64,000 bases of DNA, from positions 1 through 64,000 of the IMG/VR virus record IMGVR_UViG_3300031867_000027, one strand, 5' to 3'. Below the pieces are notes generated by a model that did not search any database, was not told the DNA's origin, and was given only the letters and a program-made list of their open reading frames with translations. The first letter of the stretch is position 1, and the number at the start of each line of letters is the position of its first letter. Of this stretch, positions 1,417-45,555 are shown one piece after another. Made by a program: the position numbers and the translations under genes. Origin of the DNA: a virus. Lineage: Duplodnaviria > Caudoviricetes.

Positions 1417-1666
1417 ATTCGCTAAGAGATTAAGAATTCTTATGGCTATGAATGATCACGATAATTCAGCAGTCGCTAAGTTACTGAACTGCAATACTGC
1501 AAGAGTAACAAATCTCCGGTGTGCAGCAACGTGTCCAAAGGATAGTGAGCTCAAAAGACTCTGTGAGTTCTATGAAGTACCTATTGAGTTTTTGTACGGA
1601 GATAAGCCGTTTACAATAACACAGGAAGTAAACAACGGTTCCTCTGTATCGTGGGATTGTGACTAA
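1385..1666 (+). CDS. XRE-family helix-turn-helix protein
   Basis: FAKRLRILM...VAKLL...LKRLCEFYEVPIEFLYG pattern. Confidence 0.75.
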   Translation: MTMEKQIITYKFAKRLRILMAMNDHDNSAVAKLLNCNTARVTNLRCAATCPKDSELKRLCEFYEVPIEFLYGDKPFTITQEVNNGSSVSWDCD

Positions 1667-1682
1667 TAGAAAGGGAGAAGCT

Positions 1683-3542
1683 ATGTTTTACGCTATTCAA
1701 GATGGTGATGTATACAACCTCAAATTCAAGTATGATCCGGATTTAATAGCAATGATAAAGAACGTACCGGGTAGGAAGTATATACCGGATGGTAAGTATT
1801 GGACCATACCCAGTTCACATTTGGGTTTCTTAATGAATGAAGTCAAAGGTACACCGTATGAACAAGCTTTACAAATTCAGTCTGATGAGATGATAAATCA
1901 GAATGCTACCCTTGATTCTACATCTGAAATCCCCGATATAGACATTTCCGACATTGATATTTACGTCAAGAATGGATTTAAGCTTTACAATCACCAGCTT
2001 GCATTCTTAAAGTACGCAAAGGCTAAAGAACGTAAAGGCTTTATATTAGCGGATGACCCCGGCTGTGGAAAGACTCTTGAAGTGATTAACTATGCTCTAT
2101 ACCAACGCAAGAAGTATGGGTATAAACATTGTCTCATCATAGCTTGTGTTAATGTAGCTAAGTATTCTTGGCAGGATGATATAGCAAAGCATACCAACGG
2201 TCAGGAAGAGGGCTATATCCTCGGTACAAGGTTGGTTACAAGAGGGAAGCGTAAGGGTCAGATTAAGTACAATGTTAAGGGTTCAGATAAAGTTGACGAT
2301 ATAAGAAACGGGCATATGTACGGTGATGAATCTGCTCCGGAGCTGCCATTCTTCCTCATCGTCAACATAGAATCTTTGCGCATAAAATCCGGTAAGAAAT
2401 ATCTGCTTGAAGAAGCGATTATAGATATGATTAATGCGGGATCATTGCCTATGATTGTAATAGATGAATGTCATAAGAATATGAGTCCACAGGCTACACA
2501 GGGTAAGCTCATACTTGATATAAAAAGACGTACCGATAAAGCTGTCCAGTGGATTCCAATGACAGGTACACCCATCAGAAATAAGCCTATTGATGTATTT
2601 ACTCCGTTGAAGTTAGTGGATGGTCACAGCATACGCAGTTTCTATGAGTGGTCTCATCAGTTCTGCATCTATGGTGGATTCGGTGGTTATGAGATATTGG
2701 CATATAAGAACATACCAATACTTAAAGAAATGTTGCACGGAAATATGATACGCAGAAAGAAGTCAGAAGTATTGGATCTGCCACCTATAGTATACATAAC
2801 TGAGTATGTCGAGAATACACCATATCAGAATATGCTATATGAAGCGATAGCAGAAGAGCTATATGAGAATCGAGATGAAATTCTTAATTCAGCAAATCCA
2901 CTGTCACGTATGCTCCGGCTCAGACAGGTAAACGGTAGTCCGGAACTGATTGATAATGATGTGATAACACCGAGAATCAAGGAACTTATAGCTAAGGTAG
3001 ATGATGCTTACCTTGTACAATATAATGCCAAGGTTGCAAGGTTGATGGAGCTTGTAGATGATATTGTTGAGCGTGGGGAAAAGGTTATTGTATTCTCCAA
3101 TTGGGTAGAACCGCTCAGAACGATATATAAATTCGTATCAAAACGTCATAAGACTTGCTGTTATACAGGTACGATGTCTGAATCTGATAGAGAAAAGCAC
3201 AAGAGAGTTTTTCAGAATAACCCAGAGTATAAAGTGATACTCGGTACAATTGGTGCTCTTGGTGTGTCTGCTACACTTACAGCTGCTACAAATGTTATCT
3301 TCTTTGATGACTGCTGGACACCTGATGATAAGAAGCAGGCCTATGATCGTTGCTATCGTGTGGGTACAACACAGTCTGTATTTGTATACACCTTGATTTC
3401 CAAGGGTACTATAGATGAGTATGTCAATCAGATTCTTGAAAACAAGAAAGCTATATCGGATTTCATTGTGGATAATAAGCTTGACCTTAAAAAGAATCCG
3501 GAGTTATTCAACTTCTTGTTAGGTATGGGGAATCGGAAATGA
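1683..3542 (+). CDS. SNF2-family DEAD/H helicase with N-terminal HARP-like domain
   Basis: LADDPGCGKT Walker A, IDECH, MTGTP, QAYDRCYRVG motif VI. Confidence 0.92.
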   Translation: MFYAIQDGDVYNLKFKYDPDLIAMIKNVPGRKYIPDGKYWTIPSSHLGFLMNEVKGTPYEQALQIQSDEMINQNATLDSTSEIPDIDISDIDIYVKNGFKLYNHQLAFLKYAKAKERKGFILADDPGCGKTLEVINYALYQRKKYGYKHCLIIACVNVAKYSWQDDIAKHTNGQEEGYILGTRLVTRGKRKGQIKYNVKGSDKVDDIRNGHMYGDESAPELPFFLIVNIESLRIKSGKKYLLEEAIIDMINAGSLPMIVIDECHKNMSPQATQGKLILDIKRRTDKAVQWIPMTGTPIRNKPIDVFTPLKLVDGHSIRSFYEWSHQFCIYGGFGGYEILAYKNIPILKEMLHGNMIRRKKSEVLDLPPIVYITEYVENTPYQNMLYEAIAEELYENRDEILNSANPLSRMLRLRQVNGSPELIDNDVITPRIKELIAKVDDAYLVQYNAKVARLMELVDDIVERGEKVIVFSNWVEPLRTIYKFVSKRHKTCCYTGTMSESDREKHKRVFQNNPEYKVILGTIGALGVSATLTAATNVIFFDDCWTPDDKKQAYDRCYRVGTTQSVFVYTLISKGTIDEYVNQILENKKAISDFIVDNKLDLKKNPELFNFLLGMGNRK

Positions 3543-3857: not shown

Positions 3858-4073
3858 ATGAAACGATATATTAAGGCAACATCAGAGATGAGTGAAGCAC
3901 TCGATACCGCTCTTGATGAGCTCAGTTCAGACTTTGAATATATCATAGATGGTCTGAAGAAACTCAGTAGAACAAGCACAGATAAGGACAAGGAAGCTTT
4001 GTCTATCGCATTGAATCTGAGTTCAGCACTTGCATCTACGATTGATGATATATCAAATTCAATTACAGAATAA
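3858..4073 (+). CDS. Small MKRYI-leader protein (putative virion cargo)
   Basis: Starts MKRYIKATS; GAGGTG RBS; follows class-B promoter. Confidence 0.7.
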   Translation: MKRYIKATSEMSEALDTALDELSSDFEYIIDGLKKLSRTSTDKDKEALSIALNLSSALASTIDDISNSITE

Positions 4074-4088
4074 GGAGTGATTATAACT

Positions 4089-7000
4089 ATGGCTATTAAG
4101 AAGTATAGTGTTAAGGCATCTGCGGAAGCTAAAGCAGTAGTAGCTTCAAAGGGCGAGTACATCAGCGCAGCGCAGTTCTCTGATACGCTCAAGTCCGCTA
4201 AGAAGAAGTTCAATGAGAAGTTCAAGAAGGGACCGTATGCTTGTGCAGAAGTACAGGGTATGGGTTATATCTACTACAATGACGGTAGTAAGATTTATGT
4301 ACCTAATGTCCTCAGATCATATGATGATGCTCTCGCTCAGGTTAAGAAACTTAATACTGGTGCGGCCGGTAAAGTGGCTGCAAGCAAGTCCTTTAAGAAA
4401 ACAGTAAAGGCTTCATCTTCTGCAAAGCGTAGAATTGGTAAGGAGTCTGTAAAGGCTTCTGAGCTTTTGGGTGGAATAGATAAACTCCCAGAGCGCGGCA
4501 AGGTTATCACTAAGACCATAAATGGTGATCCTACAGTTATTGTGGGTATCGATGATAATAAGTATATGTATAAATCGTATCTTAATAAAGCAAGTGCATC
4601 CGGTGATGTGCAGTTTATCAGAAACCTCATTAAGAAAGGTGAAGTTCCTGCTAATGCTGTCAAGAACTTGGGTTATAAGCTCTATACGGCTTCTGATGAT
4701 GTAGAATCAGCCTGCGGTAAGAAGTCTGTAAAGGCCGGAAGATATTCTGATGCTGTTCCTTATGAGAATAGAAAGTATTGGTACTTTACAACTCACGGTA
4801 TCGGTCCCGGTACGCTTCCGAAGGATGTAAATATTCTTGACACTCAGGAAGGTCAGAACCGGAAGGGTACGTGGGGAGACTATCTCTTACTCGATGCGGT
4901 GCTCAATACTGATGAGCTGAGAGAGTATGACCTTATTGAGCTTGCACCGCTTGATGAAGAGCCTACAATTAAGCCGTATAAGAACAAGAATACAATCTCT
5001 GTATTTGATTCTTGCGGTAAGAAGTCTGTAAAATCCTCAAAGTCAGTAAAGAGTTTCGGTGTAAAGGCATCTAAGTCTGTAAATGCTGCAAGAAATTCAA
5101 AGACTGTGGTTGAGCTTGTTCTTCAAGGAAACTATGGCTATGGCTGGGATGACCTTGTATCCTATGACAACACGCCTGAAGGTCGTAAGGAAATGAAGGA
5201 TGACCTTAGAACCTATCAGCAGGAAGAGAGAGGACGTGCAACATTCCGTACCATTGAGCGCAGAGTAGCGAATCCGGATTACAAAGCTCCGGCTGACAGA
5301 TTCAGAGTAACACCATACAAGCTTGGGTTTAAGTATAAAGATGGTGATACCGTGAAGTTCGCAGATATGGAGGAAGCTATCGAGTATGCTGTGTCTCAGG
5401 ATAAAGATGTTGTTCTGAAAGATGTTGTTACCGGATATAAGACTCAGATATCAAATGATACAAGCTTTGGACTGAGTGGACAGGATCGAGATAACTTCAA
5501 TGAGCGTAACATTCGTAATTTCAGACAAGTTGTAGGGGAATCCGAAACGGTTGAATCCTCTGTGTCGGCAAAGAAGCAGTTCGGTGTAAAGGCATCTAAG
5601 TCTGCTAAGAAGAGAGTATCCGCTGCAAAGGGATATTGGGCTGATGACCTCAACGCAGAAAATAACCGTAAGATATTGCAGACACTTAGAGATGCTATAG
5701 CAGATAAATATGATTCTTGTGAGATCGGTGCGATTTGTATAGTTGTGTATGATGTTCAATCAGGTGTTAGAGTAGGCAACTATTCTTTTGAAGTTGAATT
5801 TGTCAATGTAGATACTACGGATGATATATCTTTATATGTAGCATCTTCTCCTGAATCAAGAGGTAAGCTTGTATGCGTGCTAACAGAGTATGGACTCTCT
5901 GAACCGTATGGTAAGGATATTTCAGCACAAGATACATTTACAATCCCAATGTCCGGCTCAAAGAATGCGCTTTCTCAGAAGATTGAGGAAATCGCTGAGG
6001 AACTATCTACCGGAAGCGTAGAGGGTGCGTGTGGCAAAAAGCGTACAGTAAAGGCTTCAGCTGCCGCTAAGAAGCGTAAGGCTATAAAGGCATCCGGAAT
6101 ACAGGATGACATAGTGATGTACTTCAACGGAGATAATGTATATCAGGGAAGTGTCTATGACCTTGCAGATGCGGTAGAAAATCTCTGTTATGATGATGAA
6201 GTAAACGCTAAGTTCCAAGAGTGGTGTAATCAGTTCGGTGATCCTTTTGATTTTGATGGCTCTCCGATTGATACCGCAAGAGTGTTTACCGATATTATCA
6301 TCCAAGAAGCAGAGGAAGCACCGGAGACAGAGAACGGTGGTTCTCAGTTCTATGAAGATGGCAACGGTATTCTTGACTTTGAGATATTCTATGCTAATGA
6401 GGGTATTTATAGTGCTAAGTCTATAAAGTGTTGGGATAATGGCAATGATGTTTGGGAGTATCAGGAATCATATGATTATTATTATGATGAAGAACCACCT
6501 GCACATATCGCTAAGGAACTTGAACGCTTGGCTAAACTTACAGATAAGTATACAGACCGTTGGTTTGAGAAGTTTGAAGAGCTCCATCCGGGTGAACGCT
6601 ATACTTCCGTAGATCCCCATCCTGATGTAGATGAAGCCGTAGGTTATACTCTTGATGATGCAGAGTATAGACCTGATGGGATAAAAGCATCAACAGACAT
6701 CAAAGCAGATACGTGGGAATCATCGGAGGAAAACATAAATGATATGCTGAATGATTCTTATGAGTATGATGGCTTTGATGATAGCGATATGTTGGAGTAT
6801 GTAGATAGTTTCCTTCAAGATGCAAGCAGCGGTGCGTGGCTGAGTACAGATCACGTAGTATACAATGGTCCTGATGATTGGGAAGTATCTGCTGGTCTGA
6901 GTCCGGAAGCTGTTGAATCAGATTTTTGGTTCTTCCTTGATGATGTAGACCACGAATTGTATGAGGAGATGCTTGAAGCGGAAATAGCAAATCCGTTGGA

Positions 7001-8630
7001 TGAAGATCCGATAAACTACACATACAATCAGAATGCAATCAATGGAAATGAATTCTATATCCAGCTTTATCCTAATAACAATCAGATATATGCACCACAG
7101 ATTGACTTTGATGAGGAATATCTGACACCTGAATGGTTGGAAAGACTTACTGAGATTCGTAAGGCATATGAAGATAGCCGTATAGCTGCTTATACTGAGT
7201 TTCAAAATAGTCTTGGATCATTTCTCGCTAATGGTATAACAGCTTCCACCGAAGTAAATGCTGAACTTCAACTCAGCAGAAACAAGTGGGATCGTAAGAA
7301 GTACAATTGGTCTGACTACAAGAACTCTATTACCGATATAGACGGATATGTAAAGGATCTTGCTGACGGAGTAGTAGAACGCTTCTCTAATCTCACATAT
7401 GATATATCTGATGAAGCAATCACATTTACAGATGAAACTGGTGCAGTAGTATATATTCAACCTATAGATGAAATCGTTCCTGAGAAAGACGATTTAGATA
7501 ATGACATTACAGAGCTGGGAGATGCAATTCAGCACGCTAACGAAGAAGCGGATTGGTTCTCACAGGAGCAGGTTTGGGACGATTGGGACGATGATCCTGA
7601 TTACGCTACAAGAGCAGTAGAACTCAGCCGGGATATAAACTGCGCTGAAGAAACAGTTGACATTGATGACCTTGAATATATTACAGGTGACACTTCCGCA
7701 GAGGATCGCATATTTGATGTTATCATTGATAAGCTTAGAGCATCAGAACTTTCTGAGTTTGGTGAAGTAGATATACTCGGTGGTGATGCTGACATTAAGA
7801 TTTATCCTGATGGTGCGGATATTGACTATATCATAGCATTTATCGCAGATCCAATTGCTATTGGACTTGAAGATAGATTTATGAAGTATGTAAAGCACCC
7901 TAACTATAATGACCTCAACTCTACTCAGCAAATCAATGGTCTTACCACTGAGATAATCGTGCATAATGGTGTTATACGTGCAGTAAACTATGTAGATCTT
8001 GATGACTATGACCTCAGCAACTATGACATACCTGCCTATGAGAAATATGTTGAACAGCTTGCAAGGCCAGTAGTAGAGGAAATCTATAACTTTATAGATC
8101 AAGCGGTATATGACGGAAACATCACAAGCTCAACTAATATTACAGCTAATGCGGATGATATGTCTGATGATTGGGGCTACGGCTTTGATAGCAACGGTGA
8201 TCCAGTAGATGAATCTACAGTAGAGGAACTTGAAAGAATCGCGCAGGAGATTCTTGATAAGTCAGAGATTCACAGTATTGATGAATATGCTGACCTTCAC
8301 AACTTCAACTACTACGCAAGCATCCCCTATATTCAGGAAAGTTTTAATATAGCATTTACCTATGTAGCTGATATATATGAACTTTCAGAGCGTGGTCTGC
8401 TTACTGAGGATGGAATCTTTACTACTGTTGCACCGTATAATATTCGTTTCAATGTACGTTGCAAGAACGGTGAAGTTGAATATGCTGAGTGTACAGGTGT
8501 TGATGTGAAAGATAACTATGTCAAGGATGTTGAACTCAAAAACTTCAATCTTGATGCTCTTGTACAGTTTGCAACTGACCTTGTAAACCCGGTAGCTAAG
8601 GATATCTACTACGGAACAACCAATATATGA
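4089..8630 (+). CDS. Large multi-domain (polyvalent/polyprotein-like) protein with repeated basic KxVKAS linkers and a DarA_C-like module
   Basis: Long ORF; repeated CGKKSVKA / VKAS / ITAST linkers separate acidic domains; YWYFTTHGIGPGTLPKD...LNTDELREYDL resembles DarA C-terminal domain. Confidence 0.8.
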   Translation: MAIKKYSVKASAEAKAVVASKGEYISAAQFSDTLKSAKKKFNEKFKKGPYACAEVQGMGYIYYNDGSKIYVPNVLRSYDDALAQVKKLNTGAAGKVAASKSFKKTVKASSSAKRRIGKESVKASELLGGIDKLPERGKVITKTINGDPTVIVGIDDNKYMYKSYLNKASASGDVQFIRNLIKKGEVPANAVKNLGYKLYTASDDVESACGKKSVKAGRYSDAVPYENRKYWYFTTHGIGPGTLPKDVNILDTQEGQNRKGTWGDYLLLDAVLNTDELREYDLIELAPLDEEPTIKPYKNKNTISVFDSCGKKSVKSSKSVKSFGVKASKSVNAARNSKTVVELVLQGNYGYGWDDLVSYDNTPEGRKEMKDDLRTYQQEERGRATFRTIERRVANPDYKAPADRFRVTPYKLGFKYKDGDTVKFADMEEAIEYAVSQDKDVVLKDVVTGYKTQISNDTSFGLSGQDRDNFNERNIRNFRQVVGESETVESSVSAKKQFGVKASKSAKKRVSAAKGYWADDLNAENNRKILQTLRDAIADKYDSCEIGAICIVVYDVQSGVRVGNYSFEVEFVNVDTTDDISLYVASSPESRGKLVCVLTEYGLSEPYGKDISAQDTFTIPMSGSKNALSQKIEEIAEELSTGSVEGACGKKRTVKASAAAKKRKAIKASGIQDDIVMYFNGDNVYQGSVYDLADAVENLCYDDEVNAKFQEWCNQFGDPFDFDGSPIDTARVFTDIIIQEAEEAPETENGGSQFYEDGNGILDFEIFYANEGIYSAKSIKCWDNGNDVWEYQESYDYYYDEEPPAHIAKELERLAKLTDKYTDRWFEKFEELHPGERYTSVDPHPDVDEAVGYTLDDAEYRPDGIKASTDIKADTWESSEENINDMLNDSYEYDGFDDSDMLEYVDSFLQDASSGAWLSTDHVVYNGPDDWEVSAGLSPEAVESDFWFFLDDVDHELYEEMLEAEIANPLDEDPINYTYNQNAINGNEFYIQLYPNNNQIYAPQIDFDEEYLTPEWLERLTEIRKAYEDSRIAAYTEFQNSLGSFLANGITASTEVNAELQLSRNKWDRKKYNWSDYKNSITDIDGYVKDLADGVVERFSNLTYDISDEAITFTDETGAVVYIQPIDEIVPEKDDLDNDITELGDAIQHANEEADWFSQEQVWDDWDDDPDYATRAVELSRDINCAEETVDIDDLEYITGDTSAEDRIFDVIIDKLRASELSEFGEVDILGGDADIKIYPDGADIDYIIAFIADPIAIGLEDRFMKYVKHPNYNDLNSTQQINGLTTEIIVHNGVIRAVNYVDLDDYDLSNYDIPAYEKYVEQLARPVVEEIYNFIDQAVYDGNITSSTNITANADDMSDDWGYGFDSNGDPVDESTVEELERIAQEILDKSEIHSIDEYADLHNFNYYASIPYIQESFNIAFTYVADIYELSERGLLTEDGIFTTVAPYNIRFNVRCKNGEVEYAECTGVDVKDNYVKDVELKNFNLDALVQFATDLVNPVAKDIYYGTTNI

Positions 8631-8712
8631 TGTGAATACACTATCTCCTCAGCAGGGTACATCAGTATTCTGTTGAGGAGAAAGGTGAATATATAAATGA
8701 GATGATTATATT

Positions 8713-10407
8713 ATGAATATTAAGTATGGTAAGTCTAAGAGGATTATGGCTTCTGAGTCTGATGGAAACTATGATAAGTCATTCAAAGCAAAAGGTACCA
8801 CATACTACATTGAGATGCTATCCGGAGCTGGAAACTATGTAGCTAAGTGGTGGGATTCATCTGATAATGGTTTAGGCTACAATAACAAGGGTTGGGTAGC
8901 TATTGAGGGTAAAAATTATCGTGCGCTCAACAACATCAGTGATGTTTCTTCTGACAATATTATTGATTTGTTAAGTGTCGTTAGTGATTATGACAGAAAA
9001 CCCGGTAAGCCTATTCAGGATAGAATTAAGCGTGAGGTTGCAAAGCTCCTTGATTTTGATGCTATCAACTCTGCCTGCGGTAAGAAGTCTGTAAAGGCTT
9101 CCTATGATCCTGATACTGCGGTTGGTATTTTCTATGAATCTCTCGATATCTTGAACAGATTCTTCAAGGGTACTTGTGTGTTCAAGGCAACAGTAGGGTC
9201 ATATAATATGCCGAAGTGTACATCATACTATGAGAATGATGGTGTTGATTTCTTACGTGATCTTAGTAGTCTCATAAAGGATAATAGTAGTCAAGCCATT
9301 ATGGAGTGGATAGAACAGTATGAAAGCAACCCATTGTATCTTGCCGTAATCAACGGCACAGAGGATGAATATATACAGGAACATATATCTGGTGAAGATA
9401 TGAATAATATCGATCCTACTGTAGACCTCGGATTTGTCGATGAGTGGTACGATATGTTTGATCATGATTGTTACCTATTGGGTGTCGAGATTGCCGATCA
9501 GATATGTGGATACCTTAGTTATTTCTCCGATATAGTAGCTGATGCTGATGGCTCTTACGATTATGAGGATGATTTCTATGAGGTTAGGCTTAACTATTAT
9601 GGTGACAATGTGACATCTTCTACAAAGCCAAAATCTTCACGTAGAGGTGTAAACGCATCTACTAAGCGTAGCCGTAGTGCAAAGGCTGTAAAGGCATCAA
9701 CATATAATTCTATTGAACTTACATTTATTAGCCCTAATCTTGAAACAGGTCGTTTAGTCGTAGATAAAGCAAGGGAAATAGGTGGTTTTGGTTCTACGTG
9801 GAACGAGCATAGTTGGGTGTATATAGATGTACCATCAGATCAATCTGTTGATAATGTTGATGATCTGATTCAATATGCTCAGAGTGTAGGTGTGTATCTT
9901 AATAGACCATCTGCTAAATTGCTTGATGCTTGGGCGGATTCTAAAGCTCAAACTGTTCTAAGAGGATGTACTGAGAAATCTGTAAAGGCAAGTGCAATTA
10001 TGAGTGCGGCAGATATATCTAATCTGACAATATATGTACCAAGCTACTGCTATGTAGATGTTATGGTTGATAGTTATGAACAAGGTGAGGGAGAGCAGGT
10101 AAATTCTTGGACATTCCAAGTCGCTGACGGTTTCAGAACTGCTCAGGATCTTATTGATGATATTGCAGAATCGAGCGGTATCTTCTCAAATGACATCAAT
10201 GATTACGTAGTTCTCGATAGTTCATTACAAACCGATGCTACGGTCAATGTAGATAATATGATTCCTACTGATGCGGAGATTGAGGCTTGGAAACGTGGTG
10301 AACTTGAACTGTATGTAGCACATCTTTGGGTTAATCTCCAAGTTGGATCGGCAACACACGATATTACAGATGAGGAAGCAGAGGCATTTGGCTTGTCCAT
10401 ATATTAA
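8713..10407 (+). CDS. Multi-domain acidic protein with the same basic leader/linkers
   Basis: MNIKYGKSKRIMAS leader; internal SACGKKSVKAS, AKAVKAS, EKSVKAS. Confidence 0.8.
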   Translation: MNIKYGKSKRIMASESDGNYDKSFKAKGTTYYIEMLSGAGNYVAKWWDSSDNGLGYNNKGWVAIEGKNYRALNNISDVSSDNIIDLLSVVSDYDRKPGKPIQDRIKREVAKLLDFDAINSACGKKSVKASYDPDTAVGIFYESLDILNRFFKGTCVFKATVGSYNMPKCTSYYENDGVDFLRDLSSLIKDNSSQAIMEWIEQYESNPLYLAVINGTEDEYIQEHISGEDMNNIDPTVDLGFVDEWYDMFDHDCYLLGVEIADQICGYLSYFSDIVADADGSYDYEDDFYEVRLNYYGDNVTSSTKPKSSRRGVNASTKRSRSAKAVKASTYNSIELTFISPNLETGRLVVDKAREIGGFGSTWNEHSWVYIDVPSDQSVDNVDDLIQYAQSVGVYLNRPSAKLLDAWADSKAQTVLRGCTEKSVKASAIMSAADISNLTIYVPSYCYVDVMVDSYEQGEGEQVNSWTFQVADGFRTAQDLIDDIAESSGIFSNDINDYVVLDSSLQTDATVNVDNMIPTDAEIEAWKRGELELYVAHLWVNLQVGSATHDITDEEAEAFGLSIY

Positions 10408-10422
10408 GGAGGAATAATCAAT

Positions 10423-11169
10423 ATGAAACGTTATATTAAATCAAATAAGGGTATTGTCCCCACAGCAGTAAGTAAGAAGCGTAGGGCTGTAAAGGCGAGT
10501 GAGCAAGGTAATAATGGGACTGTGGTCCTAAAAGATATGAACACAGATGTAATACCTGTAGCTGATTTCGGTTGTTATGGTGGTTTGTTAGCAGATGCCT
10601 TGGATGATGTATTCGTTGCGGATGCTGTAAATACTGAAGTCATTGATCCTAATGATGAGTATTATGATGAGATAATGCAGCTTATAGCAGAGGATTATGA
10701 CGGAACCTCCGAGTTTTACGCTCAGGTATTGAATTATGCACCTGCTACGATTCAGGCAGCGTTTGATGATTATGAGATTCCTGCAACCGTAGTTTCCGGG
10801 TCCTGCAAATGGAATCACCCAAGCTATTATAATTATAGCGATGATGTCATTGAATTTGATATGGCTATTGATACATCTTGGGTCGAGAGTAAGTTTGCAG
10901 AATTCAGTAATGATCCCGGCTTCCAGCAGTTTATAGATAATGAATTCAGCAGCCGAAGTGGTTTTATATCATTTATGCCTAACAGCACAGATGAATACAG
11001 TGATTTGCTTGATCCGAACGATAGTGAGTATTGGAAAGTTGTATCTGCTATCATACAGTATATTGTAGATAGTGATAAATCTATCCGTGAGTCAGTCACT
11101 GAGGATTTGTATGATGATTTGCGTGGTAATGCTAATTATACAACTTTCAGTGGTTATGATATATACTGA
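10423..11169 (+). CDS. MKRYI-leader acidic protein
   Basis: MKRYIKS...KKRRAVKAS leader, then a D/E-rich body. Confidence 0.8.
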   Translation: MKRYIKSNKGIVPTAVSKKRRAVKASEQGNNGTVVLKDMNTDVIPVADFGCYGGLLADALDDVFVADAVNTEVIDPNDEYYDEIMQLIAEDYDGTSEFYAQVLNYAPATIQAAFDDYEIPATVVSGSCKWNHPSYYNYSDDVIEFDMAIDTSWVESKFAEFSNDPGFQQFIDNEFSSRSGFISFMPNSTDEYSDLLDPNDSEYWKVVSAIIQYIVDSDKSIRESVTEDLYDDLRGNANYTTFSGYDIY

Positions 11170-11851: not shown

Positions 11852-12436
11852 ATGAAAAGATATATAAGAAGTGCTGTTGCACCAGATGAATACAATAATA
11901 GGCAGACACAGATCGGATCACCATTAAAGACATACAAAGGAAGTGCTATAAAGCGCAGCACTAAATACGGAGTAGGTAAGGAAATCGGAGGGGATATATA
12001 TTTCCATAAGATGTACGCCGATGAGATTATACCTGCGGATGTTCTTGATAACGCAGAATCTATTCTTGCAGAAGAATATCCTAACTTCCAATATAATTGT
12101 ATAAGATATTCTCCTAAGACCGGGGATATATCATTTCAAGAAGCTCCTGACTTTGATACAGCAAGAGAGCCCAAGGTAGGGGATTATATTACAGTTAAAC
12201 CGGATGGTTCTGTTCGTAAAGGACATTCTGAGTATATTTGGCATCACAAATGGTGCTGGGTCAAAAATGATTATCCCGGCTTTGATGTATCGGATAGTTG
12301 GGAATGGTCACGGCAATGGCTTAATACTCTGCAAGAAACCTCTGATGGTAATGGTATCGGTAGGTGGAATACACAACTTAAACGATATGGTTTACCTATA
12401 GCTCAGAGTAGAAGAGTGCATATACGTTTCAAATAA
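11852..12436 (+). CDS. MKRYI-leader protein resembling the non-catalytic domain of DNA-phosphorothioation-associated methyltransferases
   Basis: GKEIGGDIYFH...ISFQEAPDFDTAREP...IWHHK...DY motif string (recalled similarity). Confidence 0.55.
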   Translation: MKRYIRSAVAPDEYNNRQTQIGSPLKTYKGSAIKRSTKYGVGKEIGGDIYFHKMYADEIIPADVLDNAESILAEEYPNFQYNCIRYSPKTGDISFQEAPDFDTAREPKVGDYITVKPDGSVRKGHSEYIWHHKWCWVKNDYPGFDVSDSWEWSRQWLNTLQETSDGNGIGRWNTQLKRYGLPIAQSRRVHIRFK

Positions 12437-14634: not shown

Positions 14635-14961
14635 ATGAAACGATATAAGGTATTTTCATCGAAGAATGGTAAGACGGTCCCGAAGAGCATTCGTGCTAAC
14701 CAGAATTCTAAGAAACGCAGACCCATTAAGGCTGCTGAAAGCTACGGTTGGGTAGTAGAGGATTGGGAAGCGCAGGAAGCATATGATTTTGCTATTGAAA
14801 GCGGTTGGTGGGATGAGGCATCCTTGAACGCTGATATAGTAAGAGCTATCAGTCAGGAAGAATTGGCTGCTTGTCTTGCTTTCATTTTCCGTAATAATGA
14901 TTTCCAAGAGTGGAATGACCGTAACAATGATGATGACGATGATGATTATGAGGAGGAATAA
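14635..14961 (+). CDS. MKRY-leader acidic protein
   Basis: MKRYK...KSIRAN...KKRRPIKAA leader; follows class-B promoter 14577. Confidence 0.75.
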   Translation: MKRYKVFSSKNGKTVPKSIRANQNSKKRRPIKAAESYGWVVEDWEAQEAYDFAIESGWWDEASLNADIVRAISQEELAACLAFIFRNNDFQEWNDRNNDDDDDDYEEE

Positions 14962-16117: not shown

Positions 16118-16663
16118 ATGAAACGATATATAAGAGCAAATATCCCTAATGATGTTCCAACATTCACCATTGATATAACGGTATTTCATGAACTCATTAA
16201 TAACAAGGTAGCAGCCGCTTTCTCTAATATCAAACCTATATATTCCGATGATTTAGAGTTAGATGAAAAGGCTTTAGCAGAGTATGATGATTTTATAGAT
16301 GAACTTATAGGAGAAATAGAGTATCAGGGATTCAAACTGCTGAGGGCATCGGAAAGTGCATCAAGTGTTACATCCCGGTACTATACATTAGCTGACAAAG
16401 AGCAGGTAGCCAATAAAGATATCAAATTTCTTGTATTCCTTAGAGTATCAGATCATCTTCCTATGTTAGACGAAAATCAAAAAGCTTGGGTAAGAAATCA
16501 GCGTGAAAAAGACCGTGAAAGATTTAAGCAACCGCAAACTAAAGCATCTCAGCGATTCAAGGTTCGGAGCTTATTAGTTAATAATGAAGAATTTGAATCC
16601 TATGATGCGGCAATGGAGTACGCTGTAAAGAAATTAGAAGAGTGGCACAATTCAGTTTTATAA
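16118..16663 (+). CDS. MKRYI-leader protein
   Basis: MKRYIRAN; contains LRVSDH motif. Confidence 0.7.
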   Translation: MKRYIRANIPNDVPTFTIDITVFHELINNKVAAAFSNIKPIYSDDLELDEKALAEYDDFIDELIGEIEYQGFKLLRASESASSVTSRYYTLADKEQVANKDIKFLVFLRVSDHLPMLDENQKAWVRNQREKDRERFKQPQTKASQRFKVRSLLVNNEEFESYDAAMEYAVKKLEEWHNSVL

Positions 16664-16749: not shown

Positions 16750-17265
16750 ATGAAACGATATATTAAGCGTGGTGTAACTGCAAGCCGCACTTCAAAGCGT
16801 AAGACTATACTTTGTTCTTCTAATGGTAAGTACATAGGTGGCAAGCTGTTTGACTTGCCTGAATCCTATTGGGATGATGAAGATGATACTGCAAGAATTG
16901 AGAGAGCAGAAGAGATAGATTCCTATATAAACAACTTCTCCGATAACTATATTATCTATTGGAATAATGGTGATAGTATCTCAGTCAATACTGATTTGAA
17001 CGTATCTTGGGATATAGTAGAGCGTATGGCTATCAAAGAGGGTATTGATGTAATCGCTTATCCGGATCACATAGACGTAATCGGTTATTATGGTCGTAAT
17101 CAGGATGTTGCACAGCTTTATCCTATATCAGATGATAAAGCTGCTGAGTTGGTTGACCTTGTAGATAATTCTGACTTTGATGAGACTACAACCTTGGAAT
17201 CATATATCTCTGAGTACGCTTGGAATGGTGCTTCTGCTGAGGATGTTCTGAAATCTTGGAGATAA
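16750..17265 (+). CDS. MKRYI-leader acidic protein
   Basis: MKRYIKRGVTAS; class-B promoter 16678. Confidence 0.75.
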   Translation: MKRYIKRGVTASRTSKRKTILCSSNGKYIGGKLFDLPESYWDDEDDTARIERAEEIDSYINNFSDNYIIYWNNGDSISVNTDLNVSWDIVERMAIKEGIDVIAYPDHIDVIGYYGRNQDVAQLYPISDDKAAELVDLVDNSDFDETTTLESYISEYAWNGASAEDVLKSWR

Positions 17266-17349: not shown

Positions 17350-17694
17350 ATGAAGATTCGTAGAAATGCTCCGATAATGGCAGCAGACTTTGATGAAGAT
17401 CCAGCAATGATGAGTGAGGATATAGAAGATACCGTAGATGACATCGCAGATGCGGTTGATGATATTCAGGATACAATGGAAGATGTAGAAGAAGATGATA
17501 TTGATATTGAAATGGAAAACAATATCGCTAATCACTATGTAGCCGAGTGCGATAGTTGCCACGGAATATTTATCTCTGCACTTGTTGAGTCTGATCAGGA
17601 AGTAGAAAGCATCACAGGCATATGCCCTCTCTGTGACAAGGATACCACACAATACTTATACTGGTTGATTAAGAACGTGCGTGATGTTGACTGA
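17350..17694 (+). CDS. Basic-leader acidic protein with zinc ribbon
   Basis: MKIRRNAPIMAA leader; CDSC...CPLC; class-B promoter 17280. Confidence 0.7.
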   Translation: MKIRRNAPIMAADFDEDPAMMSEDIEDTVDDIADAVDDIQDTMEDVEEDDIDIEMENNIANHYVAECDSCHGIFISALVESDQEVESITGICPLCDKDTTQYLYWLIKNVRDVD

Positions 17695-18644: not shown

Positions 18645-19355
18645 ATGAAGATAAGAATTGGTAGATCTAAGTCTATCCGAGCATCAGAACTTGCATACCG
18701 TAGACGTAGAATATTCTGCGCTGATGAGGAAATAGACGAAACTAATGAAGATGCTGGTATGCTTCAGCACGAACAGAAGTATTCTTCAAAGAACACCGCA
18801 GTTAATGCATTGAGTGGTAAACTTCCAGCACTGTTTGGGAAAATCAGTTGGAAACCTAATACTATGGTTTTAGATTATGGTGGTGGTAGGGAGGAAGCCG
18901 CTAAATTGGCTACTGCATATTTCAATGATATTGACCCTACAATAGAATATGTGTGGTATGATAAGTATTGGCAGACAGCTAAACAGCAGAATGAAGCTAT
19001 CCGCAGAGTAAAGCAGAACGGTGGTGCTGATGTGGCTATGCTGTCGAATGTGCTTAACGTTATAGCTGAACCGGAAGTTCGTCACGATATTCTGGTACAC
19101 ATTAGAAGTCTTTTGAAGCCCAATGGTGTACTATATATCTCCGGATATGAAGGATCTAAGGCAAACCAAGAGGGTGGTGGTAGAGCTACGGGTGAGGATC
19201 AGTATCAGACCTTTATGAAAACTAAAGATTATCTGTCTGAAATTCACGAAGTATTCCCAGATGCTACAATCAGAAGTGGTGTCATCACAGCTCCCAACAC
19301 AGGAAATGCGGTTGCTGCATCCTATAGAGATCCCAATGCTCTGATAGTATTGTAA
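18645..19355 (+). CDS. Class I SAM-dependent methyltransferase with basic leader
   Basis: LDYGGG, YDKY, LSNVLNVI, LLKPNG motifs; MKIRIGRSKSIRAS leader. Confidence 0.75.
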   Translation: MKIRIGRSKSIRASELAYRRRRIFCADEEIDETNEDAGMLQHEQKYSSKNTAVNALSGKLPALFGKISWKPNTMVLDYGGGREEAAKLATAYFNDIDPTIEYVWYDKYWQTAKQQNEAIRRVKQNGGADVAMLSNVLNVIAEPEVRHDILVHIRSLLKPNGVLYISGYEGSKANQEGGGRATGEDQYQTFMKTKDYLSEIHEVFPDATIRSGVITAPNTGNAVAASYRDPNALIVL

Positions 19356-27054: not shown

Positions 27055-27129
27055 TGGAGTGTAGCCAAGTGGTAAGGCAACAGACTTTGACTCTGTGATG
27101 CGTGGGTTCAAATCCCGCTGCTCCAACCA
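27055..27129 (+). tRNA. tRNA-Gln(TTG)
   Basis: Full cloverleaf, acaga-CT TTG AC-tctgt, TTCAAAT T-loop, encoded CCA. Confidence 0.93.
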
Positions 27130-28275
27130 ATAAGCCGCAGTCTTTAGGGGCGGAGAACAGATATGACTGCTAAGCTGTTCTGCCAAGCGTACACGGCATA
27201 TAGTGAACGGTATAAACGTTGTGGTGTTCAAGCAGTACGTAAAGTAGCAACGTGACGGCTCGGAGAGACGAGTTTATAGACAAGGTGATTAGCTATCAAC
27301 TCACTATACTATCAAAGAGGGTATGCAGCTTGACAATTCGGAATAGACGAATGAATTGCGCCATTATTGTCCGCTTTAACAATGAATTGTGCAATTTGGT
27401 CGCATACAACCAACGTGTATGCAGGGTTTATTATGCTGTTAGAACCTATACCCTACATCCGGTAAACAGCGTTTAGTGTTTTGTACGTCAACAATCCGGA
27501 AAACTATCCCGACAGAAGTGGCCAATTGTTTGGTAGTAACCAAGCGGTGATAACAACGAAACTGCCTGACAGCTCGGAAAGACGGGCATATATGTAACAG
27601 CAGCGCGGCGATATGACGTGCATTCACTTCAAGGGCTTATAGGCCGTCTGCTCTTGAAGGACTGCCAGTAGGGGAGGGACCTACCTGTTGCACCAACGGG
27701 GTTGATAGCAAATATCCACAGACCCAGTGATACGAAGTAAATATGCTGGTAGCAAGTAGAAACCCAAAGTACACAGGTTTAGAACGTATCGGCTGAAAAG
27801 TATCAGGCCAATAATGTGGGATGAGCAGCTTGGGGGTGACTTCAAACCCCACAGATATGTAACAGTATAAGGTAAACTCCTATCCTGTTGCACCAAAGGC
27901 CATCTCATTGTGCGGAGAGCCAAGAAAACTAAATGCGCACAAGTATATGCAGATGATCGGTAGCCAATCCGGAAGTCTGCGATAGCTTTGTTAAGCGAAG
28001 GGCAAAGCAGGATCTGCAAGGATTACCGGAGTCCTCCATAGATGAGTAGCATACTGTGGTTAAAGACCTCCGTTGGTTGTGAGGAAATCCGGTGTAGGTG
28101 ATAGTGTACGGTACCCATAAGCTGTGCAGTCATCGAACTATGTAATGATATGGGCGTTGGAGTGTATGAACTCAGCATCTACGTGAACGGTGCATCACAG
28201 TGATATTGGTTCAGCAGTCACCCAACATCGCTGTAAAACTGCAACAGCCGCAGGTATTCTCCAACTCTGCGGCTA
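27130..28275 (+). ncRNA. Structured non-coding RNA region (multiple elements, family not identified)
   Basis: Many nested stems, a pseudoknot, CCA-ended tRNA-like units; no ORF with RBS; flanked by tRNAs. Confidence 0.6.
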
Positions 28276-28276
28276 T

Positions 28277-28351
28277 CGAGGACGTGGTGTATTTGGTAAC
28301 ACACCTGTTTTGGGGACAGGAATAGCGGTTCGAGTCCGACGTTTTCGACCA
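28277..28351 (+). tRNA. tRNA-Pro(TGG), slightly atypical acceptor/T stems
   Basis: cctgt-TT TGG GG-acagg, TTCGAGT T-loop, CCA. Confidence 0.85.
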
Positions 28352-28427
28352 TAGGCAGCTCTACCTGCCGAAACACATTCTCCCGTGTTGATAGGTGCGG
28401 AGTTTGACCCATTACTCTGCACCAAAT

Positions 28428-28511
28428 GGCAAATTGCATTTAAGCAAATCAGTGTGATGCCCCCAACACTATTACTACTGATTCTCAGTGGGATTCTGGG
28501 ATTTGCCACCA
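28428..28511 (+). ncRNA. tRNA-like element with ACCA end
   Basis: 7-bp ggcaaat/atttgcc stem + ACCA; 5-bp/7-nt T-like arm lacking TTC. Confidence 0.5.
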
Positions 28512-37609: not shown

Positions 37610-39577
37610 TTGGCTGAAAAACTGACTATAGGTAGTCTCTTTTCCGGTATAGGTGGATTTGAGTATGTAGCATCACTATACGGAATAGAGCCTATATGGG
37701 CTTCTGAGATTGAAGATGCTCCTATACGTATCACTAAAAGACACTTCCCCAAGATGAAACATTATGGGGATATTACGAAGATGAATGGTGCAGAGATTGA
37801 ACCTGTTGATATCATTTCCGGGGGGTCACCCTGTACCGATCTATCCGTGGCCGGAAAACAAGAAGGTATAAGCCGTAAATGCTCTGCCTGCGGAATGGTT
37901 CTCCCATTGAACTTTTCAGAAAATCTGTGTCCTAAATGTGGAGCGGAAATAGAGTTTACACGCAGCGGTCTGTTTATGGAGCAGATCAGAATAATAAAAG
38001 AAATGAGGAAAGCTACAAATGAACGGTTTCCAAAAGTTATTATCTGGGAAAATGTTCCCGGAGCTCTCGGATCAAACAACGGAGATGACTTCCAATGTGT
38101 CCTCAGCGAATTCGTTGGATTATTTGGAGAAAAACTACCAACGCTTAGACCTGAGAAGTGGTGTAAAGCAGGGGAGATTGTGGGAGACAACGGTTCCCTC
38201 GCTTGGAGAACTCTCGATGCTCAATATTGGGGAGTACCCCAGCGAAGAAAGAGAATCTACCTTGTCGTCGATCTTACAGGACAACGTGCCGGAGAAATAC
38301 TATTTAAGTCAGAAAGCTTGCGAAGGCATACTCCGCAGGGCGAAATCCCGTGGAAAAGAACTTCCGGAGCGGTTAAGAGTAGCATTGGAACAGCAGATAG
38401 AACAGGCAAAGCAGAATCCGGAGAAGTAGAATCTTGTGTTGTACTTAATGATCAGGGTGGTTCAGTAATGGATGTTACTGAGGGTAAAACCGGAACACTA
38501 AGAGCTGAAACTCACGGTCACGCACCTGTGGTAGTAGATGATGTTGATAGAACAGTATATGGTATATGCTCTCTTGGATCTAACTGTATGAAGTCAGATA
38601 ATCCGGATAGCGGATTCTACGAAGCAGATATAATTAAGACTTTGGATACTTCCGGTGCTAACCCTTCTTGTAATCAGGGTGGCAATGTGATAGTTGAAAC
38701 TCCGGTGTACTGTATGCAAGGGAACTGCATAGACAGAGGCATTAAATCCGGTTGTAACGGTAAAGGTTGGGGTGAAGATGTATGCTTTACGTTGACCACA
38801 GCTGACCGACACGCTGTAGCTTATAGTGTGTCAGAAAATGGATCACAGGAAGTACGTATTACAAAAGAAGTAGCAGCTACACTTACAACAGGGGGTGGAA
38901 AACCCGGTCAGGGTTATCCTTGCGTGTTAGAAGAGAACGAATCTCAATGCGGAGCTTTCCTTGGCAAGCAGAGTGATTCTGCAAGAGGTATCGGTTATTC
39001 TGAAAAGGTGTCTCCTACTTTAGTTGCTGGAGAACCCCCACAAGTTGCTGAGTATGATAAGCATAGTATGGCGTTTTCATATCAGATGGGTCCGGGTGTA
39101 CCATATCTTCCTTGTAGCGATGAACTCTCCCCAACGTTAGTATCGAGTCAACATATAGGTGTGCTCATCGACAATCACGGTCAAGATTGTAGATGGAAAG
39201 AGTGCAAAGATGGCATATGCCCTACATTATCCGCTAATATGGGTATGGGTGGTAATAATCAGCCATTATATGTAGAGCCTACTATCGCTGCAAGTAAAGC
39301 ATCTTTCTTCACAAGAGCATCAGAGAATGATGTAGCGGAATGTTTGGTGGCTACAGATTACAAAGACCCTCAGATTGTACTTAGGCCTAATAGTATTGTT
39401 CGTAGACTTACACCATTGGAGTGTACCAGACTTCAAGGTTTCCCAGACGGTTGGGTAGATGGTGAATCTGATGCAGCTCAAAACAAAGCATTAGGAAACT
39501 CAGTTGCATTACCTTGTGTTGACTATGTGATGAGCGGTGTGGTTGATGTTCTTGATCCGATAGTAGAGGGTGATTAA
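37610..39577 (+). CDS. Large DNA cytosine-C5 methyltransferase with expanded variable region
   Basis: SLFSGIGG, GGSPC, WENVPG, PQRRKRI, RRLTPLECTRLQGFP, LGNSV; repeated TLxA segments. Confidence 0.93.
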   Translation: MAEKLTIGSLFSGIGGFEYVASLYGIEPIWASEIEDAPIRITKRHFPKMKHYGDITKMNGAEIEPVDIISGGSPCTDLSVAGKQEGISRKCSACGMVLPLNFSENLCPKCGAEIEFTRSGLFMEQIRIIKEMRKATNERFPKVIIWENVPGALGSNNGDDFQCVLSEFVGLFGEKLPTLRPEKWCKAGEIVGDNGSLAWRTLDAQYWGVPQRRKRIYLVVDLTGQRAGEILFKSESLRRHTPQGEIPWKRTSGAVKSSIGTADRTGKAESGEVESCVVLNDQGGSVMDVTEGKTGTLRAETHGHAPVVVDDVDRTVYGICSLGSNCMKSDNPDSGFYEADIIKTLDTSGANPSCNQGGNVIVETPVYCMQGNCIDRGIKSGCNGKGWGEDVCFTLTTADRHAVAYSVSENGSQEVRITKEVAATLTTGGGKPGQGYPCVLEENESQCGAFLGKQSDSARGIGYSEKVSPTLVAGEPPQVAEYDKHSMAFSYQMGPGVPYLPCSDELSPTLVSSQHIGVLIDNHGQDCRWKECKDGICPTLSANMGMGGNNQPLYVEPTIAASKASFFTRASENDVAECLVATDYKDPQIVLRPNSIVRRLTPLECTRLQGFPDGWVDGESDAAQNKALGNSVALPCVDYVMSGVVDVLDPIVEGD

Positions 39578-41367: not shown

Positions 41368-41479
41368 ATGTATCATCTCCCACATTAAACTATATCATAC
41401 CGTTACCGCATTGTCAATATCTACATAATAATTTTTCTGATTTAGCAATCGTTATAAGTAGTAGAAGAGGTGATGCTAC

Positions 41480-44620: not shown

Positions 44621-45145
44621 ATGAAAAGATATATTCGTAGAAGCATTGCGGCTTCCTTGAAGCAGTTAGATGATGGTGGTATACTCCTTACAGATTATGT
44701 CGGGGATGTAGTCAATCTGCTCATAAATAAGCCTAAGCCTTACAGATTGTGCTATCTTGAATATGATGATGTGTGGCTGATAGCAGATGCTATGACATAT
44801 CTTCACGAGGAAATGATAGAAAAATCCGTAGATGAAGGGTGGCTTCCTAAGACATTAGAGTTTATGAGAAAGTATAATGAGGACATCTCGGATATAGATG
44901 CTAATAGGTCTGTGAATTTGATTTTTCTGACCGATGAGTGTATGACACAATTCGGTAGCTATACAGATCCTTATGCTACAGCCGAGTTTGGGTATGAATA
45001 TCCGATAACTACAGGTTCATTATTCACAAAATCCAATCTATCAAGTAATTATTTGAAACGATCCGCCCCTGAACTATACAACAAGCTTAAAAAATATGCT
45101 ATATCCGAGAATAGGATAATAGATGATGATACGGCGTGGGATTGA
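44621..45145 (+). CDS. MKRYI-leader protein
   Basis: MKRYIRRSIAAS. Confidence 0.7.
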   Translation: MKRYIRRSIAASLKQLDDGGILLTDYVGDVVNLLINKPKPYRLCYLEYDDVWLIADAMTYLHEEMIEKSVDEGWLPKTLEFMRKYNEDISDIDANRSVNLIFLTDECMTQFGSYTDPYATAEFGYEYPITTGSLFTKSNLSSNYLKRSAPELYNKLKKYAISENRIIDDDTAWD

Positions 45146-45156
45146 GGTAGAAGCAT

Positions 45157-45555
45157 ATGAAACGATACATTATATCAGCACAGCAACAACCTACCGGAAG
45201 TGCTCTTGTCAATAAGATAGGTATGTATTTATACAAACATTTGGATGGTGCATTCAAATATACAAAGGATCGCAACACCTTTGATGTGTATGTTACACTT
45301 CTGTATGAGCTCAAAGAGGAATATGGTGGAACTAAGAACGATGTGCAGGAGATGACTATAAACATTAGTATTACTACCTATCAGAATAAGATAAGGGTCA
45401 ACACTATTGAAGTCACTCCAAAAGCTCGTACTTTGGGATTTGATTTATTCCCCATAGACAAGATGTATGATATGCAGTTGGCGATGGATATAATAAAATG
45501 GAAAGTGAGCAAGCGCATTCAGAAAGCTTATGAACATTATATTATCCTATTCTAA
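45157..45555 (+). CDS. MKRYI-leader protein
   Basis: MKRYIISAQ. Confidence 0.7.
   Translation: MKRYIISAQQQPTGSALVNKIGMYLYKHLDGAFKYTKDRNTFDVYVTLLYELKEEYGGTKNDVQEMTINISITTYQNKIRVNTIEVTPKARTLGFDLFPIDKMYDMQLAMDIIKWKVSKRIQKAYEHYIILF

Follow-up and report, generated by a model that had tools for sequence, protein, structure and literature searches.

The stretch of DNA analysed here (the window) consists of the first 64 kb of a linear 92,751-bp IMG/VR contig from an uncultured tailed phage of the rumen (IMGVR_UViG_3300031867_000027; completeness 64% according to CheckV), and carries two neighbouring open reading frames (ORFs) that probably encode polyproteins, in which small modules are joined by linkers built on one short motif. 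All coordinates are positions of the window and refer to the + strand unless otherwise indicated. The larger ORF (4089..8630) encodes a protein of 1513 amino acids (aa), with the leader MAIKKYSVKAS, 11 modules and 10 linkers. It is open from a GTG codon at 4077, and the ATG at 4089 is its probable start, given the GGAG sequence upstream; in a 131-kb contig of the same phage (ENA ERZ27256863), the gene was likewise called at 1513 aa. The second ORF (8713..10407) encodes a protein of 564 aa, with the leader MNIKYGKSKRIMAS, four modules and three linkers. The modules are 80–175 aa long in the large ORF (n = 11) and 92–182 aa long in the 564-aa ORF (n = 4). Modules 1 and 2 of the large ORF are basic, and the remaining modules have isoelectric points (pI) of about 4.1–5.2, with a value of about 4.1 in most modules and a net charge of about −150 for the whole protein. 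The possibility that the two ORFs are a single split gene was ruled out, as relatives join the first module of the 564-aa protein to other modules, and in other orders.

The N-terminal leader of the large ORF (4089..4160) has two sites, VKAS and VVAS. Linker 1 (4395..4460) has two VKAS sites flanking a basic spacer, linker 2 (4701..4739) reads VESA-CGKKS-VKAG, and linker 3 (5007..5090) contains four sites (VKSS, VKSF, VKAS and VNAA). These are followed by linker 4 (5550..5627; VESS, VKAS and VSAA), linker 5 (6018..6095; VEGA-CGKKRT-VKAS, a basic stretch and IKAS) and linker 6 (6405..6431; IYSA-KS-IKC), the motif of which is conserved in homologues as [IV]xxAKSIK[CA]. The remaining linkers of the protein are IKAS-TD-IKAD (linker 7, 6681..6710), ITAS-TE-VNAE (linker 8, 7236..7265; the double site is present in 17 homologues), DINCAE (linker 9, 7632..7649), which is the weakest site and is found in some homologues only, and ITSS-TN-ITAN (linker 10, 8121..8150). 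The linkers of the 564-aa ORF are INSA-CGKKS-VKAS (9064..9102), VNAS and VKAS around a basic stretch (9649..9699), and VKAS-A-IMSAA (9976..10011). All the strings reported in a first-pass annotation of this DNA, which counted about ten linkers in the large ORF and three in the 564-aa ORF, were located, and its description of the sites as often paired around a basic spacer also holds.

The 13 linkers are built on [IV]-x-[A/S/C/G]-[S/A]. The string [IV]KAS occurs 11 times in the 2081 aa of the two proteins versus twice in the other 27,077 aa encoded by the contig; in 2000 shuffles of both proteins it occurred 0.10 times on average, with a maximum of two, and looser forms of the motif are enriched 5.6- to 6.2-fold. 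The third position of the 35 [IV]-x-small words present in the linkers is occupied by Ala (23), Ser (9), Cys (2) or Gly (1), and the fourth by Ser or Ala in 27 of the 35. None of these 35 sites has the Glu at position 3 that is typical of the L/I-x-E motif of phage T4. Long homologues of the large ORF begin with MA(I)KKFKV[NMTE]AS, and its own MAIKK start matches that of the capsid protein of relatives.

Several observations indicate that the modules are very probably independent units, as judged from sequence comparisons. The 564-aa protein has 40 homologues, each covering only 18–53% of its length, and the alignments break at residues ~130, ~324–329 and ~419–429; these breaks coincide with the three linkers, which argues for the independence of the modules. 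When residues 1–1200 of the large ORF were used as the query of an exhaustive HMMER search, 411 proteins were retrieved, and the starts and ends of the high-scoring segment pairs (HSPs) pile up at the linkers: 82 HSPs start at P0001 residues 201–230 (linker 2), starts also cluster at linker 5, and 26 HSPs end at P0001 residues 771–790 (linker 6). At linker 10, 22 HSPs end just before the linker and 25 start just after it. Homologues carry subsets of the modules in other orders, with a content that varies greatly even among close relatives, and other phages encode the first 564-aa ORF module in fusion with modules from the C-terminal part of the large ORF. Module C (4740..5006), a small alpha/beta domain resembling DarA_C, with the motif RYSDxVPYExRKYWYFTTHG, has 76 homologues in very different architectures. 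In homologues, the motif of the sites is retained, often as two copies at a distance of six residues, whereas the neighbouring residues and the length of the linker vary.

Modules C, D, E, F and I are also encoded elsewhere by single genes, in which a leader of the type MKRYIK[AS] or MKIRR..[IV]x[AS]A takes the place of the linker and the last site of this leader aligns with the internal linker site. Module D (5091..5549; LQGNYGYGWDD family), for example, reads ..IKSA-R..LQGNYGYG in a 100-aa protein and ..VNAA-R..LQGNYGYG in the large ORF, and its stand-alone tagged homologues are 100–206 aa long. AlphaFold models of modules C–D and H–K (whole-model predicted template-modelling scores of 0.54 and 0.32) contain domains with a predicted local distance difference test score (pLDDT) of 85–97, separated by site-bearing stretches with a pLDDT below 50. 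Module C (pLDDT ~95) and module D, a folded alpha/beta domain (pLDDT 92–97), are separated by linker 3 (pLDDT <50); linkers 8 and 10 also have values below 50, and linker 9 lies in a low-pLDDT stretch. The first-pass annotation had proposed looking for modules as stand-alone genes and for disordered linkers in AlphaFold models, and both features were seen.

The linkers are also similar at the DNA level. A 23-nucleotide (nt) stretch is identical at positions 4713 and 9076, and 20 nt of this stretch recur at 5013; another stretch, of 25 nt, is identical at 5055 and 5580. With the codon usage of the contig, the chance of an identical codon choice for the same peptides is about 2e-3 for the 23-nt pair and 2e-4 for the 25-nt pair. 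These repeats fit recent duplication or recombination at linkers, and such events at conserved linker DNA would explain the shuffling of the modules.

The same tag is found at the start of other genes. In total, 13 ORFs of the window, including the two polyproteins, have a plausible ribosome-binding site upstream and begin with a leader of the MKRYI[KR][AS], MAIKK.. or MKIR..[IV]x[AS][SA] type. These leaders end in the linker motif, which confirms that tag and linker are the same element, as had been claimed. A 71-aa ORF (3858..4073; MKRYIKAT) lies directly upstream of the large ORF and a 248-aa ORF (10423..11169; MKRYIKS...RRAVKAS) directly downstream of the 564-aa ORF. They are accompanied by ORFs of 194 aa (11852..12436; MKRYIRSA), 108 aa (14635..14961; MKRY...IRAN...RRPIKAA), 181 aa (16118..16663; MKRYIRAN), 171 aa (16750..17265; MKRYIKRGVTAS) and 114 aa, the last very acidic (17350..17694; MKIRRNAPIMAA), and, further along the window, by ORFs of 174 aa (44621..45145; MKRYIRRSIAAS), 132 aa (45157..45555; MKRYIISA) and 163 aa (47372..47863; NIKKNYIKAD). 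A tagged 236-aa ORF (18645..19355; MKIRIGRSKSIRAS, with a second site, ..IFCA) has an S-adenosylmethionine (SAM) methyltransferase domain (Methyltransf_23 in Pfam, 29.9 bits versus a 27-bit cut-off), and its product would be a head-loaded methyltransferase. The leaders were also considered as signal peptides and rejected as such, as they have no hydrophobic segment and are basic and polar. A full-text literature search found no paper on the MKRYI leader.

The enzyme likely to read this motif is suggested by related contigs, which come from rumen metagenomes; syntenic relatives share 50–75% identity with the window in common genes. In two of them (L009 and L010), the same SNF2-polyprotein locus is preceded, at a distance of about 10 kb, by genes for a Peptidase_S77 protein and a Gp23 capsid protein. 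The Peptidase_S77 protein (447 aa; 35 bits versus a 27-bit cut-off; P0190, encoded at L009:3710-5053) has eight of its nine motif copies in a coiled-coil, scaffold-like C-terminal half. In P0190, the protease (S77 domain at about residues 1–165) is fused to this scaffold-like half of about 280 aa, and an ..IAAS site follows immediately after the protease domain; by analogy, this suggests self-release as in herpesvirus assemblin–scaffold fusions. A phmmer search of the PDB with the protease of the relatives matched only coiled-coil proteins, through its C-terminal half, and did not retrieve gp21, which is too diverged. The Gp23 capsid protein (499 aa; 77.5 bits) starts with MAIKK and has three motif copies in its first 43 residues, and the non-head proteins of the locus have almost none. 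The capsid leader RRP[VI][TN]A[SG]-TSIT[AS]G is kept in 120 of 120 proteins among the matches listed (853 found, at least 59% identity). Bacillus phage HSE3, the closest relative in culture, encodes a homologous protease–scaffold fusion that is Glu-rich, with Glu-type motifs and no [IV]xAS pattern, and it has no such capsid leader, so the motif tracks this clade. As the S77 scaffold and the capsid leader of the relatives carry the motif at the places where T4 has its L/I-x-E sites, the motif is most likely where the prohead protease cuts, with a small residue instead of Glu before the cut, and the simplest reading of the leaders and linkers is that they are substrates of the S77 protease of this clade. 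We infer that the scissile bond follows position 3, by analogy with T4, in which cutting occurs after the Glu of L/I-x-E, and with herpesviruses, in which it occurs between Ala and Ser in V/L/I-x-A-S.

Proteins containing module C fall into two mutually exclusive classes. In those of the first, [IV]x[AS]S words are numerous and ESLxE is absent, whereas in those of the second [IV]x[AS]S is very scarce and there are two to eight ESL[KNT]E linkers. P0133, P0145, P0147, P0156 and P0179 are proteins of this second class. Another example, a 1431-aa protein from a different rumen phage (L012:1798-6093; ENA ERZ28613064 scaffold_5246), combines eight ESLKE/ESLTE linkers with a Pfam LPD11 domain; its gene comes three genes after Gp23, and Peptidase_S77 is encoded further upstream. 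Linker code appears, from this one genomic context, to follow protease type, because ESLxE linkers, which are of the T4 L-x-E type, lie near Gp23 and S77 genes and are never mixed with [IV]x[AS]S.

Less can be said about the functions of the modules. Module C matches Pfam DarA_C (PF18789) over profile positions 4–68 of 70, below the cut-off (E = 3.8e-4, 21.3 bits versus 27 bits). DarA_C matches were obtained for three relatives (best E = 4e-6) and ArdA matches for two, and the homologue P0173 has an ArdA domain (46.3 bits) after module C. A Foldseek search of BFVD with module C gave two proteins named DarA_C (E ~0.01), and the ESM Atlas gave no usable match for this module. Searches of Pfam and PHROGs with the whole ORFs, and of Pfam with 27 long homologues, returned nothing, and a Foldseek search of the PDB with both AlphaFold models yielded no match at E <= 0.001. 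VIA-align reached a Z of 5.1 at best, for small folds of the ACT/ferredoxin-like type, with a single AcrIF9 row scoring 4.1; these hits were within the stated noise of the tool and were not used. No peptidase family was matched in either ORF, nor in the 10 of the 11 large-ORF modules that were scanned singly; for module J and all four modules of the 564-aa ORF, the scan for families covered the whole proteins. Neither ArdA nor LPD11 was detected in the contig, and none of the Pfam families defined from work on polyvalent proteins reached its threshold here.

We consider it probable that both ORFs encode precursors of capsid-internal cargo, cut at the linkers by the prohead protease. Late in infection, the chains would be recruited into the core of the assembling prohead, probably via the basic N-terminal leader, by analogy with the capsid-targeting sequence (CTS) of T4. 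A T4-type (Peptidase_S77) prohead protease would then cleave the disordered linkers at each [I/V]-x-[Ala/Ser/Cys/Gly], yielding about 15 folded modules of 80–180 aa, mostly very acidic, together with short basic spacer peptides. The modules would stay in the head with the DNA and be ejected into the next host alongside about 11 singly tagged proteins encoded nearby, and some of them, at least, may act in early take-over or counter-restriction. Conserved linker DNA may double as a recombination joint, which would account for related phages having these modules in a different order, within the adjacent gene or as tagged genes of their own.

Several points weigh against this reading. The short motif occurs at background rate in ordinary proteins, and its context must therefore matter. 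Neither a capsid gene nor a head-protease gene was found on this 64%-complete contig, so the argument concerning the protease is built on relatives; searches for Peptidase_S77, S78 and S21 in the contig gave none, a result that, for an incomplete contig, is uninformative about the phage as a whole, and the phage's own capsid and protease genes are placed in the missing 36% of the genome. The polyprotein genes come after the lysis and SNF2 genes, outside the head module. Module J was poorly modelled by AlphaFold, and the models are also compatible with weak packing between modules. The DarA_C score of module C is below the 27-bit Pfam cut-off, and 14 of the 15 modules have no recognisable family or fold above noise, so the terms 'effector' and 'anti-defence' are largely a matter of guilt by association. 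Cleavage, packaging, ejection and function are all inferred from sequence. The proposal, made in the first-pass annotation, that a protease cuts the chains into many small effectors therefore stands, by the logic of the sequence, with respect to the linkers as sites and the modules as units, and falls short with respect to the effector role. Its cocktail of anti-defence proteins is favoured by one DarA_C-like module and an ArdA-fused homologue, with the other 14 modules unmatched, and an anti-defence role is thus weakly supported, by association.

The chains might instead be acidic, scaffolding-like material of the head core or 'inner body', loaded and cut for a structural job (to determine size, balance charge or fill space ahead of DNA entry), with the fragments expelled or inert. 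Their strong net negative charge, the low pI of most modules and the lack of an enzymatic or known fold in 14 of the 15 modules would suit such a role, and the T4 core proteins gp22, gp67 and gp68 are indeed cut into several fragments (PMC9026906). This nevertheless seems unlikely, given that the relatives already have a dedicated coiled-coil scaffold fused to their protease, and that the modules are compact folded domains of 80–175 aa rather than short peptides likely to exit through capsid pores. Moreover, module content is highly variable among close relatives, which would be unexpected for an essential core but is typical of arms-race cargo, and the resemblance of module C to DarA_C and the ArdA fusions of homologues do not fit a purely structural job. 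It is less probable still that the chains act or are delivered intact, as multi-domain 'polyvalent' proteins with basic linkers serving as flexible, perhaps DNA-binding, spacers, the likeness between leaders and linkers having arisen by repeated duplication of a cassette boundary. The near-identical DNA copies of linkers are consistent with such duplication, and some polyvalent proteins, such as the virion RNA polymerase of N4 and ArdC/TraC1, are transferred uncut (PMC5512222). Yet the same motif is present in the capsid leader and the scaffold, where T4-type phages have cut sites, and it is conserved while the length and other residues of the linkers vary. Furthermore, another clade flanks the same module with ESLxE, and a mere spacer would not be expected to co-vary with the type of protease.

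Cutting of the sites outside the capsid by a different enzyme, such as a host signal-peptidase-like protease or another phage protease with a small-x-small preference, is hardly credible. The [IV]-x-[A/S] pattern does fit the −3/−1 rule of type I signal peptidases. In addition, Glu is the residue after which all studied S77 proteases cut (PMC9026906, PMC10052503). However, no hydrophobic signal segment precedes any of the sites, the leaders being basic and polar, and the motif is concentrated in the scaffold tail of the protease and the capsid leader, both classical prohead-protease substrates; no other protease was seen in the gene maps of the loci read. Cleavage of capsid-internal cargo by the prohead protease is therefore preferred. 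We give about even chances to a broader proposition: that the T4-type phages of rumen and gut include a large uncultured clade (>850 capsid clusters) whose S77 protease has switched at P1, the residue preceding the cut, from Glu to Ala/Ser, in a herpesvirus-like manner; that all the substrates followed; that the three-residue code became a universal 'load and cut' joint, with any small domain behind it travelling with the DNA, either as a single gene or as a bead of a polyprotein, and with beads exchanged via linker DNA; and that the ESLxE-flanked beads of other phages point to a general, protease-matched delivery strategy of large phages that has been overlooked in the literature.

Other genes of the contig specify a terminase carrying an HNH insert, a portal of the T4 type (Portal_T4, 42.4 bits versus a 22.9-bit Pfam cut-off), a tail sheath and neck-like proteins. 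Among cultured phages, the nearest to it are the Bacillus phages SP-15 and HSE3, Streptococcus phage GXN1 and Listeria phage LIS04, with portal and capsid identities of only 21–27%. Megablast and tblastn searches of GenBank phages with the polyprotein ORFs gave no match, and no relative emerged from an IMG/VR pattern scan using the 564-aa protein. Extension from the last gene of the contig led to contigs of 1 kb only. Upstream of the polyproteins, the SNF2 helicase (window 1659-3542) has 627 aa, and that of the relatives (L009:13916-16642) has 908 aa, with an inserted intein (Intein_splicing and HNH_3). The gene for the terminase large subunit (G000 76920-80129, equivalent to L002:1920-5129; 1069 aa) has an HNH endonuclease-like insert in mid-gene, perhaps an intein or a homing element, and a 717-aa homing-endonuclease-like ORF is present 3' of the sheath gene (G000 88000-90153). 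Between the terminase and the portal lies a gene for a 518-aa protein with a C-terminal BRCT domain (G000 80163-81719, equivalent to L002:5163-6719). Bacillus phage SP-15 has a BRCT protein immediately upstream of its capsid gene, and the BRCT protein may be a conserved component of the head module. Elsewhere in the window, three tRNA genes (Gln-TTG, Pro-TGG and Leu-CAA), separated by gaps of about 1.1 kb and 0.4 kb, are found in a 1.8-kb region (27055-28814) with no plausible ORFs on the + strand. As judged from the ORF list alone, a run of ORFs at 29570-34407 and 37610-39577 has N-termini resembling those of DNA methyltransferases; the same list includes a 588-aa ORF on the opposite strand (39619-41385, −).

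Three aspects of this system are new: the code of a phage with an S77 protease is not based on Glu, the leader is reused within proteins to join as many as 11 folded modules, and modules move between polyproteins and genes with a single tag. If the cuts are real, a single gene of 4.5 kb furnishes the capsid with eleven separate proteins, and more than two dozen proteins are injected with the phage DNA. The capsid-targeting principle of T4, which there serves three or four proteins, would then extend to a cargo system that is modular and recombines, and a simple sequence rule (a leader or linker followed by a small domain) would be available for spotting the ejected proteins of uncultured phages. 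A shift in P1 specificity within the S77 family would also be indicated, which could be examined structurally and exploited to equip phage heads with foreign proteins. The families to which the modules belong, one DarA_C-like and many unmatched, are candidates for new early-acting or counter-defence functions.

The first-pass annotation described the strategy as rarely reported. This needs qualification, since the processing of head cargo is classical (T4, phiKZ and SPN3US) and polyvalent proteins were described in 2017, although no paper was found on motif-punctuated cargo polyproteins cut in trans. Polyvalent proteins, known from phages and conjugative elements, are multi-domain proteins predicted to be packaged and injected, for which processing by built-in zincin-like peptidases or by a C-terminally fused assemblin-like peptidase has been proposed (Iyer et al., 2017; PMC5512222). 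Like the proteins studied here, they string together unrelated domains (2–15 per polypeptide) with extreme domain shuffling, and belong to phages with portal–terminase packaging (terminase, portal and sheath genes are present on the contig). Their hallmark domains include DarA, ArdA, MPTase, ART and LPDs, of which the counterparts here are the sub-threshold DarA_C-like module, ArdA in a homologue and LPD11 in a protein of the related class. By contrast, no peptidase domain was detected in the chains studied here when the whole ORFs and ten single modules were scanned, and the paper on polyvalent proteins (PMC5512222) contains neither the word 'linker' nor a repeated cleavage motif read in trans by a prohead protease. 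The DarA protein of phage P1, which is located inside the head, undergoes proteolytic processing and shields injected DNA from restriction (PMC5512222). Module C is similar to the C-terminal domain of DarA, but through a sub-threshold DarA_C match only; a Dar-related match was obtained for one of the 15 modules, no search being aimed at DarA_N or DarB.

In the giant phages phiKZ, 201phi2-1 and SPN3US, ejection or inner-body proteins are cut by gp175/gp245 (PMC10052503, PMC9026906). These prohead proteases are diverged gp21 homologues, as the enzyme of the present clade would be; many head-internal proteins are cleaved, with several motif copies per substrate, and the cargo is ejected into the host. 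Their motifs, however, end in Glu (A-X-E, S/A/G-X-E), and 13 of the 14 cuts mapped in SPN3US remove or degrade the N-terminal propeptide of a single mature protein rather than separating serial folded modules.

Herpesviruses offer a parallel in terms of the residues recognised. The maturation and release sites of their assemblin, reportedly described by Welch and coworkers in 1991 (as cited in PMC5512222), have the consensus (V/L/I)-X-A-S, with the cut between Ala and Ser. The same succession of an aliphatic residue, any residue, Ala and then Ser is seen here, and in both cases the protease is fused to a scaffold. The fold of the herpesvirus protease is homologous to that of gp21 (PMC9026906). 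The enzyme of the relatives is nevertheless a phage S77 member and not an S21 protease, and the likeness in specificity is deduced from the substrates.

A further close model is T4, in which the scaffold and the capsid propeptide contain L/I-x-E sites of the protease gp21, ten-residue leaders ending in L/I-x-E load internal proteins into the head, and the CTS of the internal proteins IPI–III and Alt is removed by gp21 (PMC9026906). The present system resembles it in having a T4-type head (Portal_T4 in the contig, Gp23 and Peptidase_S77 in relatives), a short N-terminal leader ending in the protease motif on unrelated small proteins, and a motif common to the scaffold and the capsid leader; ejection is presumed, by comparison with the T4 anti-restriction protein IPI. 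It differs in having Ala/Ser where the T4 motif has Glu, a leader of seven residues (MKRYI[KR][AS]) rather than ten, and a tag borne by 13 ORFs of the window. Finally, whereas T4 cargo proteins are single-domain proteins with terminal propeptides only, the tag is repeated here inside two genes, the products of which would give rise to 11 and four proteins, respectively.

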